DNA of 64,000 bases, from contig JASCQW010000099.1 of assembly GCA_030264375.1 (NCBI GenBank), positions 49,225,740 to 49,289,739 on the forward strand, in the 5' to 3' direction. The position numbers and the translations under genes were made by a program. Source of the DNA: Carcharhinus longimanus (lineage: Eukaryota). Of this stretch, positions 9,920 to 62,144 are shown piece by piece; the stretch's first letter is position 1; every line of letters begins with the position of its first letter. A model generated the notes under the pieces. The model ran no database searches and was not told where the DNA came from. It saw nothing but the letters and a program-made list of their open reading frames with translations.

Positions 9920-10515
9920 ATAAGTCGTGTGATGAAAAGAAATTGGAATCTATATCATTACCATCCATAGCTTCAAACTACAACATGCATGTGCAGATGC
10001 ACGTTCCCACAGCAAGCCAAACTTCTTTCGGTAGGGGTGATGGGACTTTGTAAATGTATTCTCTAAAGTCATCCCATACTCATTCATCTTTAGCCACTAA
10101 ATTATCAGTGAATTACACAAATGACATGCCGGTTTCTGCCAGTGAAATTAGTGAAGAAACTCACCAGGATGTGGTGTTCAGTAACATCAATTACATCCTG
10201 AATAGTTGGCCTAAAGAGTGTGAAGATGAGAAATTGTAGGAATATTTCACATGTGGAAATGAACTAAATGTTGATTAAGGCTGTCTCCTATGGAGTTTAG
10301 GAGTCATTGCTATATCATGATTTAGAGAGAAATTGTTCGAGAAATTTTAGAAGATTTCATGGGGCTGGTCTGCATGGAAGCAGAAGTAAGAAGCAATTTT
10401 TGGCATCTAAATGTATATAATAACACTGAAGAGTTGGTGAAGAAATATCAAGTATGTCACGAATGTCAAAGGATCTAACCAAGGTTGCTTTCATTCCATG
10501 GTCAATTACAAGAAA

Positions 10516-10770
10516 GTACAGGAAGAAGTCTCACAACACCAGGTTAAAGTCAAACAGGTTTATTTGGTAACAAGCTTTCAGAGCGCTGCTTCTTTGTCAG
10601 GGAGTTCTAATCACAAACAGAGCATATAAAGGCACACACTCTGATGAAGGAGCAGTGCTCTGAAAGCTAGTGGCATTTGTTACCAAATAAACCTGTTGGA
10701 CTTTAACCTGGTGTTGTGAGACTTCTTAATGTGTTTACCGTAGTCCAACACCGACATCTCCACATCACAG
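10516..10770. mobile_element. Palindromic Penelope-end mini-element (family 1) inserted in the Gypsy integrase
   Basis: Left arm aagaagtctcacaacaccaggttaaagtcaaacaggtttatttggtaaca is the inverse of right arm tgttaccaaataaacctgttggactttaacctggtgttgtgagacttctt; ends atctccacatca; flanking direct repeat ACAAGAAA at 10508-10515 and 10773-10780. Confidence 0.8.
10641..10672 (+). ncRNA. Minimal hammerhead ribozyme-like core (stem I imperfect)
   Basis: CTGATGA-A-GGAGC-AGT-GCTCT-GAA-AGCT-A-GTG: conserved boxes, 5 bp stem II, palindromic AGCT stem III. Confidence 0.55.
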
Positions 10771-11859
10771 TCACAAGAAAACCATGGGAGCAAGCATATG
10801 TTGATTTCTTTGAAGTGGAAAGGAAATAATATTTTGTTTTGGTTGATAGCTATAGTCTATGCCAATACCACAAGTGCCAAAACTATTGAGGTATTGAAAA
10901 GTTGGTTTGCAATTTGAGTCGGCAGAAGTGTTGATGTCAGCTACTGGTTCATAGCTTACATCTGAAGAGTTTGAAATATGTCTGTGTAAGGATGGAGTCA
11001 AATACATTCTAAGACCACCATATCAGGAGCAATGAATGGTGCTGCAGAAAGAACTATACATATTGTGATATCTTCTGCAGACATATGTGCTCAGAGACAA
11101 GCTGGACAGTAACTTCCATGTTTCTCTTTTACACAGGCTGGACAATTGTCTAGTTCTCTTGCAGAAACAGTCCTACAACAGGTTGCTCACCTTATGAGTT
11201 TGGGTTTAAAGGTCCTCCTAGGGCAAGAATTAGTTTGCCAGAGTCTGACATCAATAGTGAAGTAAAAGAAAAGCAAGACAAAGTAAAGACGAGTCATGAT
11301 AAATTAGACTTGAATCTTAGAGTACTGGTCAGAAGATCATAGTTAAAAGCCGCTGAGATCATAAAAAGAAGTATGTGATTGGGTTTGTCGTAAAGAGCCA
11401 CAATGCGTTCACGTATCTAGTGAGAGAGAGAGTGCCACGTTAGTCATTTGCTTGAAAGGGAATGCATGATAAACCTCTGATCCAAATTCCTTCCACAGTC
11501 CCCATTTCCCATATCACACAATTTACTCTATCAATGGATTCTACTAAGACAAATAAATCAAAGTTACAGAACCATTAAGTAGAGTTGGTAGTCAGGATCA
11601 AAGTTTGAGTTTGACACAGGCAGAAGTGTTAACAAAGCAGAGTCAAGCTAATGGATATGGAAGGAGATACCCAGAGGGGAAAAAGCCAGATTGTTTAACT
11701 GTAAGTATGAAGCAGAAAGAAATCACTCTCTTCATTATCTGCTGTCAAATTATGATATTTTTGACTAGCTCATGCCGGGTGAAATTTTTTTACATGTAAA
11801 TTATCCTGGAAAGAATGATCTTACATGTTTTCATTCTGATTATAATGCCTGTTTCTGCT

Positions 11860-13740
11860 TCCCTGACCTAGAATACCTGATGCTAAAATGCCACTCTTAT
11901 TACCTTCCACAGCAGTTTACCTCTGTTATCCTGACAACAATTTACATCCCATCAACCATGCTTCAAGAAGACGATCATTATGCCCGTACCAAGGAAAAGC
12001 CAGGTAGCAGCCTTAATGACTATTGTCTGATGGCCCTGACATCCATCATTATGAAGTGCTTCAAAAGGTTAATCGTGGCATGAATGAATTCTTGCCTCCC
12101 AGATTGCCTGGATCCACTACTATTTGCCTATTGCTGCAACAGGTCCACGGCAGACACCATCTTCCTGGCCCTACGCTCAACCACAGGACATTTGGATAAC
12201 AAAGACACCTATGTCAGACTCTAATTTATTGACTACTGCTCAGCTTTCAACACCATTATTCCTATAAAACTCATCTCCAAACTCTATCCTCTGGGGCTCG
12301 GCTACTCCCTCTGAGACTGGATCCGAGACCATCTAACCCACAGACTGCAATCANNNNNNNNNNNNNNNNNNNNNNNNNNNNNNNNNNNNNNNNNNNNNNN
12401 NNNNNNNNNNNNNNNNNNNNNNNNNNNNNNNNNNNNNNNNNNNNNNNNNNNNNCTACCTAAGAAAAACCAAGCAGCATGCCTTAATGACTATCGGCTGGT
12501 GGCTCTGACATCCATCATTATGAAGTGCTTCAAAAGGCTAGTCATGATATGAATCAATTCCAGCCTCCTGGACTACTTTGATCCAATACAGTTTGCCTAC
12601 TGCCGCAACAGGTCCACAGCCGACACCATCTCCCTGGCCCTGCACTCAATCCTGGAACATCTAGATCACGAGGACACCTATGTCAGACTCCTATTTATTG
12701 ATTACAGCTCAGCCGTTGATACTATTATTCCTATGAAACTCATCTCCAGACTCTGTGGCCTGGGCCTCGGCACCTCCCTCTGTGACTGGATCCTGAACTT
12801 CCTAACTCACAGACGACAGTCAATAAGGATAGGCAACAACACCTCCTCCACAATCATCCTCAACACAATTTGTGTGGCCAAATTCCCCTCCAATTCGATT
12901 TTCAAGTTTGCTGATGACACAACCGTAGTGGGTTAGATTCCAAACAATAATGAGACATAGTACAGGAAGAGCTGGAGAATCTGGTGAACTGGTGCAGCAA
13001 CAATAATTTCTCCCTCAATGTCAACAAAACGAAGGAAATTGTCATTGACTTCAGGAAGCATAAAGGAGAACATGCCCCTGTCTACATCAACGGGAACAAA
13101 GTAGAAAGTGTCAAGAGCTTTTAGGTGGCCAGATCACCAACAACCTGTTTTGGTCCCTCCATGCCGATGTTATATTTAAGAAAGCCATCAACGCCTCTAC
13201 TTTCTCATAAGACTAAGGAAATTTGGCATGTCAGCTACGACTCTCACCAACTTTTACAGATGCAGTATAGAAAGCATTCTTTCTGGTTGTATCACAGCAT
13301 GATATGGCTCCTGCTCTGCCCAAGACTGCAAGAAACTACAAAAGATTGTGAATGTAGCCCAATCCATCACGCAAACTTGCCTCCCGTTCATTGACTCTGT
13401 CTACACTCCCCGCTGCCTCGGTAAAGCAGCCAGCATAATTAAGGACCCCACGCACCGCAGACTTTGTCTCTTCCACCTTCTTCCATCATGAAAAAGATAC
13501 AAAAGTCTGAGGTCATGTACCAACCAATTAAAGAACAACTTCTTCCCTGCTGCTGTCATTAGTTGCATTAAGTTGATCTTTCTCTATACCTTAGCTATGA
13601 CTGTAACACTACATTCTGCACTCTCTCGTTTCTTTCTCTATGAAGAGTATGTTTTGTTTGTATAGCATGCAAGAAACAATACTTTTCATGGTATGTTAAT
13701 ACATGTGACAATAATAAATCAAATCAAATCAAATCAAATA
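11860..13740 (+). mobile_element. Rex1/Babar LINE (two diverged RT segments either side of a gap, plus 3' end)
   Basis: [16 protein letters not shown] occurs twice (~12012 and ~12481); [11 protein letters not shown] motif near 12907; 3' tail aataataaat(caaat)n at 13711-13739. Confidence 0.9.
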
Positions 13741-21263: not shown

Positions 21264-21780
21264 CATATCAATATCCATGGCTGACGCTGTGGGCAAAATC
21301 TTCCCTGCTGATTTCCAAACCCTTCTGTAAGGCTTAAACATTGGCAGGTAAATGATGGAGAAGGTAGTTCAATCTGGAGGCAACCTCCAACTTTTTCAAA
21401 ATTTAAATAAAAAAAAAAGGCTTCTGCTGCCAGAGCAACAGGTGTAGGGTTAAGGTTGGCTGGAAGGGCAGGGGTGGAACCCCTGTACAAAGGTGGTCTG
21501 CGGCTGCTGAACCCAAGCAAACAGGAAAAGTCTCTTGGCTTGCCTGGAACACCTTTTTCCTCCTTGATGTCAGCAGGCCATCTCTGGGTTCCAACCATAT
21601 CCAGGAACCTGGAGGCTAAGTAGAAAATCCTAGTTGTCTTCTGTTAACAGGCCTTCATGGGTGCCTAATAATAGGTTTGATTGGCTCCCTGCGCATGAAG
21701 GGGGCTTTCTATTACCACCCCCCTACCACAAACCTTCGCAAAATAGCCCAAGGCAGGATGGAGCTGGAGGAACAAGGGGA

Positions 21781-22352
21781 GCCATGATGTGGAGATGCTG
21801 GCTTGGACTGGGGTAAGCACAGTAAGAAATCTCTAAACACAAGGTTAAAATTCAACAGGTTTATTTGGCAGCACAAACTTTCGGAGTCTCGTTCCTTCAT
21901 CAGGTGAATGAGGAGTTGTGCTCACAGGGCGTATACAGACACAAACTCAAATTACAAGATAATGGTTGGAATGTGAGCCTTTACAGGTAATCGAGTCTTA
22001 AAGGTAAATGAATGGTGAGAGGGCCAAGCACAAGTTAAAGAGGTGTGCATTGCTCCAGCCAGGACTATCTGTAACTCCCATAACTTAGTGCAAAATCTCA
22101 CTAACTGTCCTGGTTGGAGACAATACATACCTCTTTAACCTGTGCTTGCTCACGTTGCCTTGATTACCTCTAAGACTTGATTACCTGTAAAGACTTGCAT
22201 TCCAACCATTATCTTATAAATTGAGTTTGTGTCTGTATATGCCCTGTTTGTGAACACAACTCCTCACTCTTTTGATAAAGGAGCAAACTCTGAAAGCTTG
22301 TGCTGCCAAATAAGCCTGTCGGACTTTAACCTGGTGTCGTGAGACTTCTTAC
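21781..22352. mobile_element. Long palindromic Penelope-end element (family 1) with 12 bp target-site duplication
   Basis: Imperfect inverted arms ~21818-22065 and ~22108-22352; GGAACAAGGGGA at 21769-21780 and 22353-22364; hammerhead-like core on - strand at ~21872-21906. Confidence 0.85.
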
Positions 22353-22949
22353 GGAACAAGGGGATACAGGCTAGATGTGCTAATTTAGTGCCCATCCATC
22401 TTCCTCCATTACCAGCTTACACAGGGCCTAAAATTCAAGCCCTGCATGTTAGTAATGTAAATTCCATTCAGAAATATGAAATAATTGTGCGTCATGCAGA
22501 ATGGAAAAGTAAATTAGCAAAGTATTTTAATAACATGGTAGCCCTTCAATTGTGGTTGTGTATTTCCTCACTTGTTGAAGAAAAATAGACCATTAATACT
22601 TGAATGACCACTTGTCTGGACTATGAACAGTCAGAATGGAGAAGCTGCAGTGTCGTAGTTACAGTATTGCAGAATAATTGCATCACATTACAGGAAGTTA
22701 TAAACTAGGAATTAACTTGTGCTGGTTATAGGGGAATTTGGTAAAGTAAACTTCAAGGAAATCAAGAGCCTTATATAATTGTACATAATTCCAGAGAGAT
22801 TCAAAGCTTTTCTAGATTATCAGTTAGAGGTTACAACTTTAAAATATGATACTCCGAGTTAAATACAGAGATTCTCTGGCCTCCTGCTTGTGGGAGGTGG
22901 TGTGTTGTTCGCATTTCAAAAAGTTATGATCAACTCAAAATTAGCTATG

Positions 22950-25569: not shown

Positions 25570-25970
25570 CATAATTCTTAGGCCATTCAGCCCTTCAAGC
25601 ACCACCATCCAATAAGATTATGGAAGATCTGACAGTGGCTTAACATATGAATTAGGAATAGGCTACTCAGCCCCTCAAGCCTGCTCTACCATTCCGTAAG
25701 ATTATGGCTGGTCTGATTTCTTCACATTCCTGCCTATCCCCCTATAATCTTTCACCCCTACACCCTACTTAATCTATCTACCCTTGCCTTAAAAATATTC
25801 AAATACTCTGCTTTCGCTGCCTTTTGAGGAAGAGAATTCCAAAGGCCCTCTGAGGGGAAAAATTCTCCTCATCTCCATCTTAAACAGGTGACCGCTTATC
25901 ATTAGACAGTGACCCCCTGGTTCTAGGTTCTCCCACAAGATGAAACAGCCTCTCTGCATCCACCCTTTCA
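25570..25970 (-). mobile_element. CR1 3' end fragments
   Basis: Two CR1 tails (ggccattcagcccttcaagc; ggctactcagcccctcaagcctgct) plus terminal coding remnant (ORF 25789-25971). Confidence 0.75.
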
Positions 25971-36257: not shown

Positions 36258-36555
36258 GAAAGAGACAAGGTTCACTCTTGGAATAGACTGCCCCAGTGGA
36301 CAATAAGGCAAGGGATATTGCGGATCTCCCCTGTTTCAGTCTGAAAGGACTCAGTCATGTAGCATTTAAGGGCCAAAGCTACCTTCTTTGCCACAGAGTG
36401 CTGCCTATGCCCTGCTTTGAGGTTTCAAATGGGGCTGCAGCAAGTGATTAAACTTGGTCACAGCCTCATAGGCAGCTCACCCACATCAGGTTGAAATAAG
36501 AAAACTGTTGTCTAACAAAATGCACATCTCCTTCCTCCTCCCCCCTCTCTAAGCT
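36258..36555 (+). repeat. Left arm of ~300 bp inverted repeat (partner 41529-41831)
   Basis: By-eye alignment to the reverse complement of 41529-41831: about 12 substitutions and 3 small indels. Confidence 0.95.
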
Positions 36556-39015
36556 AATTCAGTTGAGGCATGCTGTCAAATTTATCATGTTCTGGCACAA
36601 TATAATTGATAACTATATTCAACTGTGCCTGACCAATGCACTTGGAGATTTCCCTACTTTTAAGTAAAGGCAAGCTCCCAAAACAATGCAGAATTAAAAC
36701 CAAGGGGAATTGGATATATATGGAGATGGAGCTCAACATGGATATCCATAAATGTGAAAAAAACTATTGTGAATAAAATTACTTACCTGATGCACACTTT
36801 TTTATATCCAAGGGGAAAAAAAAGGAATATTTTCTTAATGGTGAGGAATTAAAATGGTGTGGAGGAAAAAGGGGTTTTGATGAACATGTACATAAATTAC
36901 AAGAAGGTAGAAACAGTATTCTAAAAGACTCAAGGAATGTTGGCCTTTATCTCATGCCACTGGAACACAAAGGAAGGAGTGTGAGGGAGTTATGATTTAG
37001 TTATATATGAAAATGCCATTACATAAAACAGGAAAATGTATTTCAACTTTTATACATACTTAACAAATGACTACCCCCTCCATTCAGTCACCAAGGAAAT
37101 AAGACACTTACAACAGACAAAACACTTGCCTTTAATCTTAATTTTACCAGCAAACACACACAATGTTTGAAGTAGACACGCATATGCAGTGTAAATGAGA
37201 ATTGAAATCACATGCCCAACAACAGTGTCTATTCATTTTTTTTATTTAATAGTAAATTAAATTTACCTTATCTGGATTCTCAGTTAGCCATGTATGACCA
37301 GTGGCTGACCTATTGCACAAACACTGCTGCAATTAAATTTCCAGTTATCCACAAGCTCCAATTTCTTCCCAAAGATTTGCCAAGTAGGATCTTCTCTTGC
37401 ATCTTTAGCATTCCATTAAAACCCATGTTGAACTGTCTTGAACTTTGTTGACGTACTTCATGAGATCTTTTTCAAGAAAACATCAAAGTAATACATCTGG
37501 GACAGATATCTATATGACTGAACTGTGGTTATCACAACTTTTCTCCTTTAAAAATACAGTTATTACAACTCCTAATGATTCTGTAATTAGGAGTTACAAA
37601 ATCCTAATTCAATTTTCTTCTTTTCAACTCCACCTTTTCCTGAAATATTATTATTTGTAAACCATGACTCTGTGAAGATTTATATTCTTTCAGTGCTGGC
37701 TATGCTGCTTTCACTTTCCAGTATGTAATTACCAGCGTCATCTTACAAATTTCCTGGAAAATAAAATCTTTTTTCAGGNNNNNNNNNNCAATGATTCCTT
37801 CTGTAAATTCAGAAATTTTGGCTATCTGTTTTCCAGATAATCTGATTAACATTTTCACAACCCTACAACTCTGACGCTATTTACTCTGCATACACTCATA
37901 GGCCTCTTTGTATTTTCATTCCTTATTTTTGTCTCTTTAGCCAATTTTCTAAGAGACTTCAAACAGTCTTTTTGTCCTGCCTGTGTACCATTTGAGGACT
38001 TCCCTCTTTTTTTACTTTTATTTCTTACATCACTTCCTCATGTCTTTGACATTGGCTGAAATCTTATGGAGATGATGGATTCTGGGCCACCAGCCTGAGC
38101 CAGCATTGACTCCTGTGATGAAGGTCCATTTGTATCATGTGCCACATAGGCACTTAACTGGACAGCAGCACACCTCTTTTCCCCCCGCACAGGATCAAAG
38201 ACCCCAGGTGCAGAAGTCTTCACTGCTGAAAGCTGCTGGTCAATCAGACTGGCAGCTCTATGTTGAATGGCAGTGCCATTGGGAGGCAGTGGTTGCTGTT
38301 GGTATGACTCCACCTGTGGCCGAGATTCATTGCTGAATTCCAGGCAGGGGTGAGTGATGGTGGGAGGGAGGTTCTGAGGGAGGAGGAATCAGCAGCAGGG
38401 ATAGAGGGGTGGGTCTCAGTGTCTCTTCCCCTATCCCCTTCCTGGTGCTGGATCCCTTGATCAAGTAGTGAATGTCTTTAAACAAGAGACACGCCCTGGA
38501 GTTTACAGCAAACCTGCATAGGGTTACCTGTCATGCTTCTCACATGGCTGGACCCCTGTCTGATGCTGGATGAATCCTACTGGCCCTAGGCTAAGATTCT
38601 TGAGTTGGCTTTAGTTGGCCACTTAAAGATCTCAATTGATGGGCCTCCATAGGCCTTCTTGCCTTAGATTTAATTGGAATGGAAGGAGAAAGGAAGCAGG
38701 GTCATCACTTGCATAGTTTAGGGAGTTTTTTGGGGCACATTACCTGGAAAGTTAAAATTTATTAATGGAGAATAACATTCCAATTAAAATCTGAAAATTC
38801 TGAATGTGAAAACTTCAATTTCATGTGCTAGCAGCTTGATATTTTCTGTAAAATCTCAAGGTAAATTCACAATTAAATAGAGAAAAACATAAAAGCAGGG
38901 ATATGTTTTATATTGCTTTGTGTAGTTATTGCACTGAAAATGTATGTTTTTTTTAGTTATAACTGGCCACAGCTAAATAATAGACAAATTGCTAAATGTG
39001 ATATCTTACCCCTAG

Positions 39016-39213
39016 GAGTCAGAAAAACTGGAATCCCTGAACGCGGAGCTGAAAGCACAAATAGAAGAATTGAAAAATGAGAAACAGCAGCTGATTTACA
39101 TGCTGAACTTGCACAGGCCCACATGTATAGTCCGGGCTCAGAATGGAACGACTCCAGAGGAGGAGAAAAACCTTTTCATCCAACAGATCAAGGAAGGAAC
39201 ACTGCAGAACTAA
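39016..39213 (+). CDS. ATF3: ATF3 coding exon 3 (leucine zipper and C-terminus)
   Basis: ESEKLESLNAELKAQIEELKNEKQQLIYMLNLHRPTCIVRAQNGTTPEEEKNLFIQQIKEGTLQN*; acceptor tcttacccctag; TAA 39211-39213; full protein 77+36+65 = 178 aa. Confidence 0.97.
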   Translation, partial: ESEKLESLNAELKAQIEELKNEKQQLIYMLNLHRPTCIVRAQNGTTPEEEKNLFIQQIKEGTLQN

Positions 39214-41528: not shown

Positions 41529-41831
41529 AGCATAGAGAAGGGGGAGGAGGAAGGAGATGTGCATTTTGTTAGACACCAGTTTTCTTATTTCAACCTGATG
41601 GGGGTGAGCTGCCTATGAGGCTGTGACCGAGTTTAATCACTTGCTGCAGCCCCATTTGAAACCTCAAAGCAGGGCATAGGCAGCACTCTTTGTGGCTGAG
41701 AAGGTAGCTTTGGCCCTTTAAATGCTACATGACGGAGTCCTTTCAGACTGAAACAGGGGAGATCTGCAATATCCCTTGCTTTGTTGTCCACTGGGACAGT
41801 CTATTCCAAGACAGTGAACCTTGTCTCTTTC
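41529..41831 (-). repeat. Right arm of ~300 bp inverted repeat (partner 36258-36555)
   Basis: See left arm. Confidence 0.95.
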
Positions 41832-48624: not shown

Positions 48625-48763
48625 ATTTATTTGATAGTATCAAATATTTATTTGATAGTATCATTTATTTGATACTATCAAATAAATCGGTTGGACTAAA
48701 ACCTGGTGTTGTCAGACTTTTTACTGTGTTTACCCCAGTCCAATGCCGGCACTTCCACATCAT
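48625..48763 (+). mobile_element. Truncated Penelope-end (family 1) with fold-back junction repeats
   Basis: caaataaatcggttggactaaaacctggtgttgtcagact...ccccagtccaatgccggcacttccacatca, preceded by inverted 18-mer copies. Confidence 0.8.
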
Positions 48764-60615: not shown

Positions 60616-61485
60616 TGTCTTTGTGTTCAATTTCCTTTTGAAAGTTATTACTGAATCTGCTTCTACCATCCTTTCAGACAGCGCATTCCAAGTCACAAGC
60701 ACAAGGTTTTACACAGCATAAAAGTCTCCCCTTCAATTGTCTCTTGTCCTTTTGACAATTAATGTGATACTAAGCACTCTCACAAAGCCAGATGGTTCCA
60801 GCTTCAATCCTGAGTCTGTACTGAACCATCTGAGCTAAACTAAGGCAGGACTGGAACATAATCGTTGACCACAACACTACTAGCCTTGGAGGAAAGAAAA
60901 CCTGGCCATCCTGCCTGCTCCTGATCGTGGTCCAATGATTCCTACTTGGATGTGCACAAGCGTGGGAATGATGGGATCAAACTTCATGTGTTGCTCCTAT
61001 CCTATGGACAAAAATCCGATGAACAAACACTGTTAAGCGGGACAAACTGCTGTTAAGCTGAAGTGCTGGTGCTACTTATCATTTACGAAAACTTGTCACA
61101 GCAAGAGTGAACACATTCACAGTGGGTAATGGGAGGAAGTGGTACACATGTTGAAAGACTAGGAAACTCTGTGACATCGAGACAATTTCAATCTCAGTTT
61201 TACTGAGTATTTGCATGCAGAGAGCAGAGCAAGGTTACTATCAAGTGAACACAGAGAGACTCATGGAGTAGAGAAGCAGGATATTGTCAGGAAGAGTTAT
61301 CTACAGAGGCCTAGAGGTGCCCCAGGAGAAAGGGTACCAAGGAGTCTCTTCTCTGGACTGTGTTTCTTTGCCTCCCAGTGACGAATTTGCAGCATGCCGG
61401 CAACATAGGACTAGCCTGCTAACACACACTGTGATTGACCAAAGGTTAGGATCGGCATGAGAAGATTGCAGGGAACATGGAAACA

Positions 61486-61817
61486 ATCTCACAACACCAG
61501 GTTAAAGTCCCACAGGTTTATTTGGTAGCACGAGCTTTCGGAGTGTTGCCCCTTCATCAGGTGACTCTCACGAGGAGAACAATCTTAAAGTTAAAGCTGT
61601 GCTATTTAGGAATGAAATCAGGAAAGAGTTATTTCAAATAATTGGTGGAAATCTATAATTTTTATCCCCACCCACCTCTTTGCGAAAATCCTGAACGTTG
61701 AAGAGGCAACACTCCAAAGGCTCGTGCTACTAAATAAACCTATGGGACTTTAACCTGGTGTTGAGAGACTATTTACTGTGCCTACCCCAGTCCAACGCTG
61801 GCAACTCCACATCATTA
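61486..61817. mobile_element. Palindromic Penelope-end element (family 1) with captured 130 bp insert
   Basis: Arms ~61486-61566 and ~61699-61769 plus end ...caactccacatca; flanking near-duplication GAACATGGAAACA (61473-61485) and GAACATTGAAACA (61818-61830). Confidence 0.85.
61529..61563 (-). ncRNA. Minimal type I hammerhead ribozyme motif
   Basis: Minus strand CAC-CTGATGA-A-GGGG-CAACA-CTCC-GAA-AGCT-C-GTG: stem I CAC/GTG, both conserved boxes, 4 bp stem II, palindromic AGCT stem III, CUC cleavage triplet. Confidence 0.7.
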
Positions 61818-62144
61818 GAACATTGAAACAGGAGGCCATTCAACCCTTTGAGTCTGTCTGCCCTTCAGTAAGATCATTGTTGAATTGTACCTCAAACTCC
61901 ACTTTTCCAACTTTGCCCTTTCATTGATACCTTCACCTAGTTGAAGTATATAAATCTCAGCCTTAAACTTTCAATCAACGTTCAGGCCTTTCGCGAAGAG
62001 GTGGGTGGGGATAAAAATTATAGATTTCCACCACTTGTTTGAAATAACTCTTTCCTGATTTCATTCCTAAATAGCCCAGCTTTAACTTTAAGATTGTTCT
62101 CCTCATTCTGGATTCCCTGACCAGAGGAAAAAATTTCTTTTAAC

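Follow-up and report, generated by a model that had tools for sequence, protein, structure and literature searches.

Four related insertions with inverted arms in a 64-kb stretch of Carcharhinus longimanus, very probably truncated Penelope-like elements

The four insertions and their surroundings

The window, that is, the whole stretch of 64,000 nucleotides that was analysed, holds four related insertions, here called A to D, with ~1.2 kb of element sequence in total. They lie where a preliminary description had placed them and, as it had claimed, form one family: they cross-match at ~75-88% in BLAST within the 64-kb window, and a profile built from their arms recovers seven arms in it at E<1e-26, with no further copy better than E=0.06. 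Three of them, A (10516-10772), B (21781-22352) and D (61486-61817), are fold-backs of 257, 572 and 332 nt. They had been reported to contain no ORF, and indeed the longest stop-free stretches in the insertions are of 42-60 aa. The fourth, C, consists of a tailed end, has only tiny fold-backs, and lacks a target duplication. The features are listed below, with arm positions numbered from hammerhead C3.

10508-10515 (no strand): left copy of the 8-bp target duplication of A, from the direct-repeat scan
10516-10641 (- strand): tail-less inverted arm of A, ~-44 to +87; core dead (G8 to A), with 8-nt and 9-nt gaps relative to the other arms
10641-10772 (+ strand): tailed arm of A, with hammerhead C3 as its first position; AGCU palindrome and core both intact, stem I of only 1 bp; family end at 10767, then 5 extra nt
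10773-10780 (no strand): right copy of the target duplication of A
21769-21780 (no strand): left copy of the 12-bp target duplication of B
21781-22066 (- strand): tailed arm of B, ~-161 to +123; core intact at 21903, stem I of 3 bp, palindrome broken (AGUU)
22067-22106 (no strand): 40-nt centre of B, parent sequence or junction filler
22107-22352 (+ strand): tail-less arm of B, -161 to +82; core dead (C3 and G8 changed)
22353-22364 (no strand): right copy of the target duplication of B
48625-48674 (- strand): three 12-nt inverted copies of the start of the forward arm of C, an iterated micro fold-back
48675-48763 (+ strand): tailed arm of C from +33 (+30 counting G48671); no core, no target duplication
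61473-61485 (no strand): left copy of the 13-bp target duplication of D (1 mismatch)
61486-61564 (- strand): tail-less inverted arm of D, -4 to +75; the only complete minimal hammerhead
61565-61571 (no strand): 7-nt junction filler of D
61572-61701 (- strand): loop of D, inverted copy of host DNA 61975-62104
61699-61817 (+ strand): tailed arm of D from +5, past the CUGA box; GAAA also mutated
61818-61830 (no strand): right copy of the target duplication of D
61975-62104 (+ strand): host template of the D loop, within an old interspersed repeat

The flanking direct repeats differ in length, as had been observed before: 8 bp in A, 12 bp and exact in B, and 13 bp with one mismatch in D. An alternative duplication of A, of 10 bp with one mismatch, leads to the end at 10770 that was originally given. 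Random position pairs reached the duplication score in 7 of 400 cases for A and in none of 400 for either B or D; around C the scan found background only, since 113 of 400 random pairs reached its best score. One arm per hairpin carries the extra end already described, a tail of ~33 nt in A, ~41 nt in B and ~46 nt in D. The tail of B runs 3-4 nt beyond the other tails and ends in ATG and then GC (21781-21786, - strand). As the pLTR and tail overlap the start of the ORF in other Penelope-like elements (PLEs), this ATG may by analogy be the start codon of the parent ORF.

Read in six frames and judged by eye, A and B gave no frame recognisable as a PLE protein. Visual inspection of the window's 20 frames of 120 aa or longer, one of which was also Pfam-scanned, revealed no PLE ORF either. 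When 185,579 prokaryotic genomes were scanned with an exact 34-nt query for stray copies with a linked ORF, 0 matches resulted. The window contains 593 N bases in short runs (e.g. 37779-37788), none of them within the four insertions.

Around insertion A (~10300-11070, + strand) lies a decayed remnant with multiple stops, which we take to resemble a Gypsy-type integrase; Pfam gave no match on this flank. The duplicated 8-mer of A encodes the same residues on either side. At 12553-12936 (+ strand) there is a 127-codon remnant of a non-LTR reverse transcriptase (RVT_1, E=2e-4), which is unrelated to the Penelope ends. Its best full-length identity (12553-12933) is 67%, at 100% coverage, with a protein of Pristis pectinata (sawfish); the other full-length matches, mostly from teleosts, reach at most 59%, and partial matches up to 70%. 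This is compatible with an elasmobranch host. An open 65-codon terminal exon at 39016-39213 (+ strand), followed by an AU-rich 3' region, presumably resembles the C-terminus of the bZIP factor ATF3, and Pfam gave no supporting bZIP match on it. A coding exon is flanked by a 303-bp segment that occurs as an inverted pair (36258-36555 and 41529-41831), 94% identical and 5 kb apart; there is no third copy in the window, and either a local inverted duplication or two young copies of a repeat could account for the pair. In addition, 61818-62140 and 25649-25953 belong to one interspersed repeat, presumably a CR1-like LINE 3' end, of which they are old copies that have diverged strongly; D is inserted at the end of the first of them.

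Hammerhead motifs in the arms

A minimal type I descriptor, run on both strands of the 64 kb, found three cores, at 10641 (A, + strand), 21903 (B, - strand) and 61560 (D, - strand). Shuffled sequences gave a mean of 0.215 cores, and none of 200 shuffles gave three. The statement that the arms carry a hammerhead core is therefore right in that the core is non-random, but it was too broad: CUGANGA...GAAA is kept in three of the six hairpin arms, the core with the AGCU palindrome in two, and the core with palindrome and a 3-bp stem I in one only, the minus-strand arm of D. Nor does a hairpin present a core on both strands, as had been thought, since each of them has a single one. In the complete hammerhead of D, C3 lies at 61560, stem I has 3 bp and stem II 4 bp, the palindrome is AGCU, and cleavage is predicted after UC. 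In A, the junction lies at C3 and thereby leaves stem I with a single bp. The broken palindrome of B gave a duplex of +2.4 kcal/mol, against -3.9 and -4.5 kcal/mol. As for the second arms, the tailed arm of D begins past the CUGA box and so, as inserted, never had a core, while the comparison of arms indicates that A and B, when new, probably bore one on both.

In predicted folds of the whole elements (-138 kcal/mol for A, -336 for B and -163 for D), stem I and stem II had pair probabilities of 0.000 in all three cases. It should be noted that isolated 100-nt folds also disfavour these stems, with a pair probability of at most 0.014, and therefore folding says little on dimer activity; the full dimer is a pseudoknot for ViennaRNA, so its parts were scored individually. 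If a locus were transcribed, the modelled long stem would bury the hammerhead and suppress ribozyme folding. Rfam at E<=1 gave no hammerhead family match, and its two matches are weak miRNA models on C, far below gathering scores. All six hairpin arms read through the predicted cleavage site (+29/+30), which argues that the template was uncleaved RNA. We propose that the hammerhead came along with the parent pseudo-LTR as a passenger and decays neutrally.

Arms, junctions and the formation of the hairpins

The tailed arms start at +1 (A), -161 (B), +30/+33 (C) and +5 (D). The tail-less arms reach -44 (A), -161 (B) and -4 or -11 (D), and end at +87 (A), +82 (B) and +75 (D), that is, within 12 nt of one another. 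No junction or loop is common to any of the three hairpin pairs. The private bases common to the two arms of one hairpin occupy 3 columns in A, 1 in B and 3 in D; among cross-locus arm pairs, 6 of 18 share one column and none more. From these private bases it follows that the loci stem from different parent variants and, together with the three differing junctions and a D loop made of local host DNA, that the hairpin is not the unit that moves. By the yardstick that the preliminary description itself had set, a shared internal junction, its self-propagating unit thus gives way to independent truncated insertions.

In A and D, each arm carries sequence absent from its partner, the tail on one side and 44 nt (A) or at least 8 nt (D) of 5' sequence on the other. 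Barring a later deletion, therefore, neither arm can have been copied from its partner at the DNA level. As far as the sequences tell, both arms of A and of D were probably copied from element RNA, one per nicked strand. The two arms of A differ, furthermore, by a 9-nt indel. The arms of B are 80.6% identical over the shared core (204 of 238 overall), no closer than arms of different loci among A, B and D (73.5-88.1%), so that a common template for them is only faintly suggested. In the centre of B (22067-22106) there are a 5-bp inverted repeat and short direct repeats, and its portion 22067-22096 has no exact match longer than 8 nt within 1 kb of either flank. Neither a tandem arrangement of units nor two cores on the same strand were found at the four loci, where the sole tandem arrays are a 17-nt doublet in B and a 17-21 nt array in C. 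The direct pLTR-ORF-pLTR arrangement, expected only in longer copies, is absent in these four truncated ones.

Another aspect concerns the place where the tailed arms stop. Three of the four do so within or just past the hammerhead (10641, +1; 61699, +5; 48675, +30/+33), which suggests that ribozyme structure or cleavage may halt reverse transcription.

The origin of the D loop had been overlooked. The loop (61572-61701) matches 61975-62104 in inverted orientation, without gaps, at 124 of 130 positions, and this source sits 145-274 bp beyond the right duplication. Among the window's repeat pairs that span 100 nt or more, 80 in number, this one has the highest identity (median 75.7%, with 2 of 80 at 90% or more); with the other copy of the host repeat in the window (25649-25953), 62 of the 130 positions are common to loop, source and copy. 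By this likeness the loop is a copy of the adjacent host DNA, closer repeat copies elsewhere in the genome being possible, and, the loop being local, D would have been built where it is now located. The junction with the tailed arm has a 3-nt microhomology, and at the other end there are a 6-nt element match and the 7-nt filler. The divergences, 6/70 between the arms and 6/130 between loop and source (Fisher p=0.35, low power), are compatible with one event, a later rearrangement being possible given the low power. The loop has the orientation expected if, in such an event, the 3' end of the tailed cDNA had folded back on its own flank strand, copied 130 nt and annealed to the second cDNA.

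The 5' end of C, also missed at first, consists of three 12-nt inverted copies of its own start, at 48625, 48646 and 48663. These pieces carry the variant bases of C and are clearly self-copied, and the host repeat to the left of C is cut off. To judge from its sequence, C would be a miniature of the process seen in D. Its start falls 0-3 nt after the predicted cleavage site (+29/+30), and C could be the cDNA of the ribozyme's 3' cleavage product. We treat this as a lead only, weakened by its being one case, by a rough chance estimate of ~1 in 8 among four arms for such a start, and by the six hairpin arms that read through the site. On a larger scale, loci of this kind might form a genome-wide fossil record of two-strand priming from the starts that bound the tail and of microhomology joins with local capture, the C-like fraction being cDNAs of cleaved RNA. 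We regard this broader view as speculative and rather unlikely; if it were true, a genome-wide pile-up of tailed arms at +30 would be in vivo evidence of cleavage by the minimal PLE hammerhead.

The explanation that we favour is that A to D go back to four separate insertion events of an endonuclease-bearing elasmobranch Penelope-like family, each copy being heavily 5'-truncated and dead on arrival and the hairpin a by-product of insertion. We consider it very probable, the membership being read from non-coding features at the four loci examined and the independence from the variable lengths of the target duplications and the differing junctions. According to this scheme, the protein of the autonomous element would nick both target strands 8-13 nt apart, and each 3'-OH would prime a short cDNA on uncleaved element RNA. 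A distal start site would yield the tailed arm, and a proximal one, 33-46 nt upstream, the tail-less arm. Both cDNAs would stop early, at the unrelated positions seen in the sequence, and microhomology-mediated end joining by the host would fuse their ends head to head, as the junctions suggest. Sometimes snap-back synthesis would come before joining, on adjacent host DNA in D (130 nt) and repeatedly on the own cDNA end in C. The two-cDNA mechanism is modelled on the work with the Anolis Poseidon enzyme and on the snap-back and two-cDNA junctions of R2 and L1. Some observations do not fit it well: with 46 nt, the tail of D is longer than the 30-40 bp given in the literature, the duplication scan at C did not rise above background, the arms of A differ by the 9-nt indel, and the arms of B are no closer than cross-locus arms.

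The preliminary description had proposed a self-propagating, non-autonomous, ribozyme-bounded and retrozyme-like hairpin family with cores on both strands. It is true that three of the four insertions are hairpins without an ORF, that the core is non-random and that A and B probably had it on both arms when new; moreover, non-LTR retrozymes derived from PLE pLTRs are reported in the one chondrichthyan sampled (10.64898/2026.07.22.740005). However, the unshared junctions and loops, the lack of a conserved monomer between loci, and arms that are inverted and never in tandem units all speak against such a family, as do the local DNA contained in D, the element ends, which are tail boundaries and not cleavage sites, and the intact cores, of which no hairpin has two and C has none. 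Furthermore, cores on opposite strands would be unable to excise a monomer from one transcript, and stems I and II had probabilities of 0.000 in the three predicted whole-element folds. This makes the proposal highly improbable. The very high abundance in this shark that accompanied it is an extrapolation from one window; it may be plausible, given the Penelope-like expansion reported in the whale shark (10.1101/443036).

A different route to the same family's hairpins would be fold-back DNA synthesis on a single cDNA, or cruciform repair after insertion, with the D loop also captured after insertion. Self-copied pieces with C's variant bases and private bases shared by the arms of one hairpin would be expected from it, snap-back on cDNA is the commonest class of R2 snap-back (PMC11371274), and the 8 and 9 nt lost by the tail-less arm of A resemble what unstable palindromes would lose. 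We still think it clearly unlikely: the tail-less arm reaches further 5' than the tailed arm in A and D, which needs later deletion, the ends at +75, +82 and +87 are as close as a defined second start site predicts, and the two divergences of D are compatible with one event. A DNA-transposon MITE, the alternative named at the outset with fixed terminal inverted repeats and target duplications, a fold-back element or a DIRS-type remnant would account for inverted repeats, small size and missing ORFs, but hardly deserves credence, since the inverted repeats are not terminal, one arm having the extra 33-46 nt tail, the duplications (8, 12 and 13 bp) are not fixed, the lengths are not uniform, the inner ends vary, and the hammerhead fits the PLE consensus; DIRS elements, for their part, are described as lacking target duplications (PMC8969392). 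The MITE, DIRS and retrozyme readings were rejected on the one-sided tail, the variable duplications, the absence of tandem units and the unique junctions. Thus, the loci behave as truncated PLE insertions and very probably are such, and not retrozymes or MITEs.

Comparison with known systems

As a system, these loci are ordinary: PLE ends that are truncated, tailed and paired with an inverted copy, and that carry a minimal hammerhead, belong to textbook anatomy and can be explained without a new retrozyme. The value of these loci is modest and mechanistic, and concerns the route by which an inverted pLTR arises and the question whether the hammerhead of PLEs is active in cleavage in vivo (PMC8557442, PMC11167929). 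Loci like A and D provide a logical test, each arm having sequence missing from its partner; D documents that neighbouring DNA was captured where the arms join, and C points to a simple histogram, drawn genome-wide, as a readout of ribozyme cleavage. In addition, annotation tools can mistake such hairpins for MITEs or miRNA precursors, and C did draw two weak miRNA-model matches.

PLEs occur across vertebrates (PMC4350176), and an inverted 5'-truncated copy with a 30-40 bp tail is typical of them (PMC8557442; PMC8969392). The EN+ PLEs (Penelope/Poseidon and Neptune, with Pen2a_Av of Adineta vaga and Poseidon of Anolis) share with A-D the 5' truncation with an adjacent inverted truncated copy, the one-sided tail, duplications near 8-10 bp and the terminal-repeat hammerhead (PMC3846280, PMC8557442, PMC11167929). 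In our loci this corresponds to a minimal type I hammerhead with palindromic helix III (three cores, complete on the minus strand of D), an inverted truncated copy with long arms at three of the four loci and a micro fold-back at the fourth, a tail at one end, the longest slightly over the published range, and a short variable target duplication at three of the four. The Penelope-like character of the ends, already recognised in the preliminary description, is therefore in agreement with the published anatomy and consensus. EN+ PLEs are defined by a single ORF for a telomerase-like RT with a GIY-YIG endonuclease, whereas A-D are too short to keep any ORF. In Adineta, pLTRs in inverted orientation are known that come with a tail and with duplications of 9-10 bp, and host DNA has been described as captured between pLTRs (PMC3846280). 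That capture lies between direct pLTRs or solo pLTRs and is not described as local in the covered sections of the source, whereas D contains an inverted copy of immediately adjacent DNA. The enzyme of Anolis Poseidon nicks and extends both strands. Its two start sites lie at the borders of the tail, and insertion is no less efficient when the ribozyme is dead; RNA-seq of Anolis failed to show PLE hammerhead cleavage in vivo (PMC11167929).

Regarding the ribozyme, our motif fits the consensus of the metazoan PLE minimal type I hammerheads (Cervera and de la Pena 2014, PMC4209133), NNN CUGANGAH G..C GAAAN-palindrome-NU H NNN, and also shares its bulge after A9. In the supplement of that paper, helix III of the Chrysemys (turtle) row is likewise GC/U, and an AT-rich CCAAAUAAA follows downstream. 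Compared with those hammerheads, stem II has 3-5 bp here and stem I 3 bp, and most copies are decayed. Dual hammerhead motifs on opposite strands, 100-700 bp apart, and a second opposite-strand motif at the 5' end of a truncated PLE had already been reported (PMC4209133). According to a review, the PLE hammerhead cleaves as a dimer (PMC6765202). Shark terms are absent from the searched supplement files of PMC4209133 (file 1 excluded) and of PMC8557442, and a literature search with Repbase and Dfam outside its scope found, in the portions of the sources covered, no report of this shark family or of local capture inside an inverted pLTR pair.

The metazoan non-LTR retrozymes are, like A-D, non-coding, PLE-related and of similar size, with a type I hammerhead (PMC7229834; 10.64898/2026.07.22.740005). 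They are built, however, as head-to-tail tandem units with a ribozyme in each and form circular RNA, whereas A-D lie dispersed, as pairs in head-to-head orientation, and keep one intact core at most; no head-to-tail tandem, no same-strand hammerhead per unit and no conserved monomer were found in them.

Finally, R2 can snap back onto its cDNA or onto nearby target DNA (PMC11371274), and L1 insertions of two oppositely oriented RT products have been interpreted as joined end to end (PMC11702581). These systems resemble our loci in the second cDNA from the other target end, in the microhomology joins and in the snap-back on nearby target. In L1 twin priming, the inverted part mostly does not overlap with the first cDNA (1-10 bp deletion or duplication; PMC11702581), whereas here both arms copy the same 70-240 nt, and a long hairpin results.
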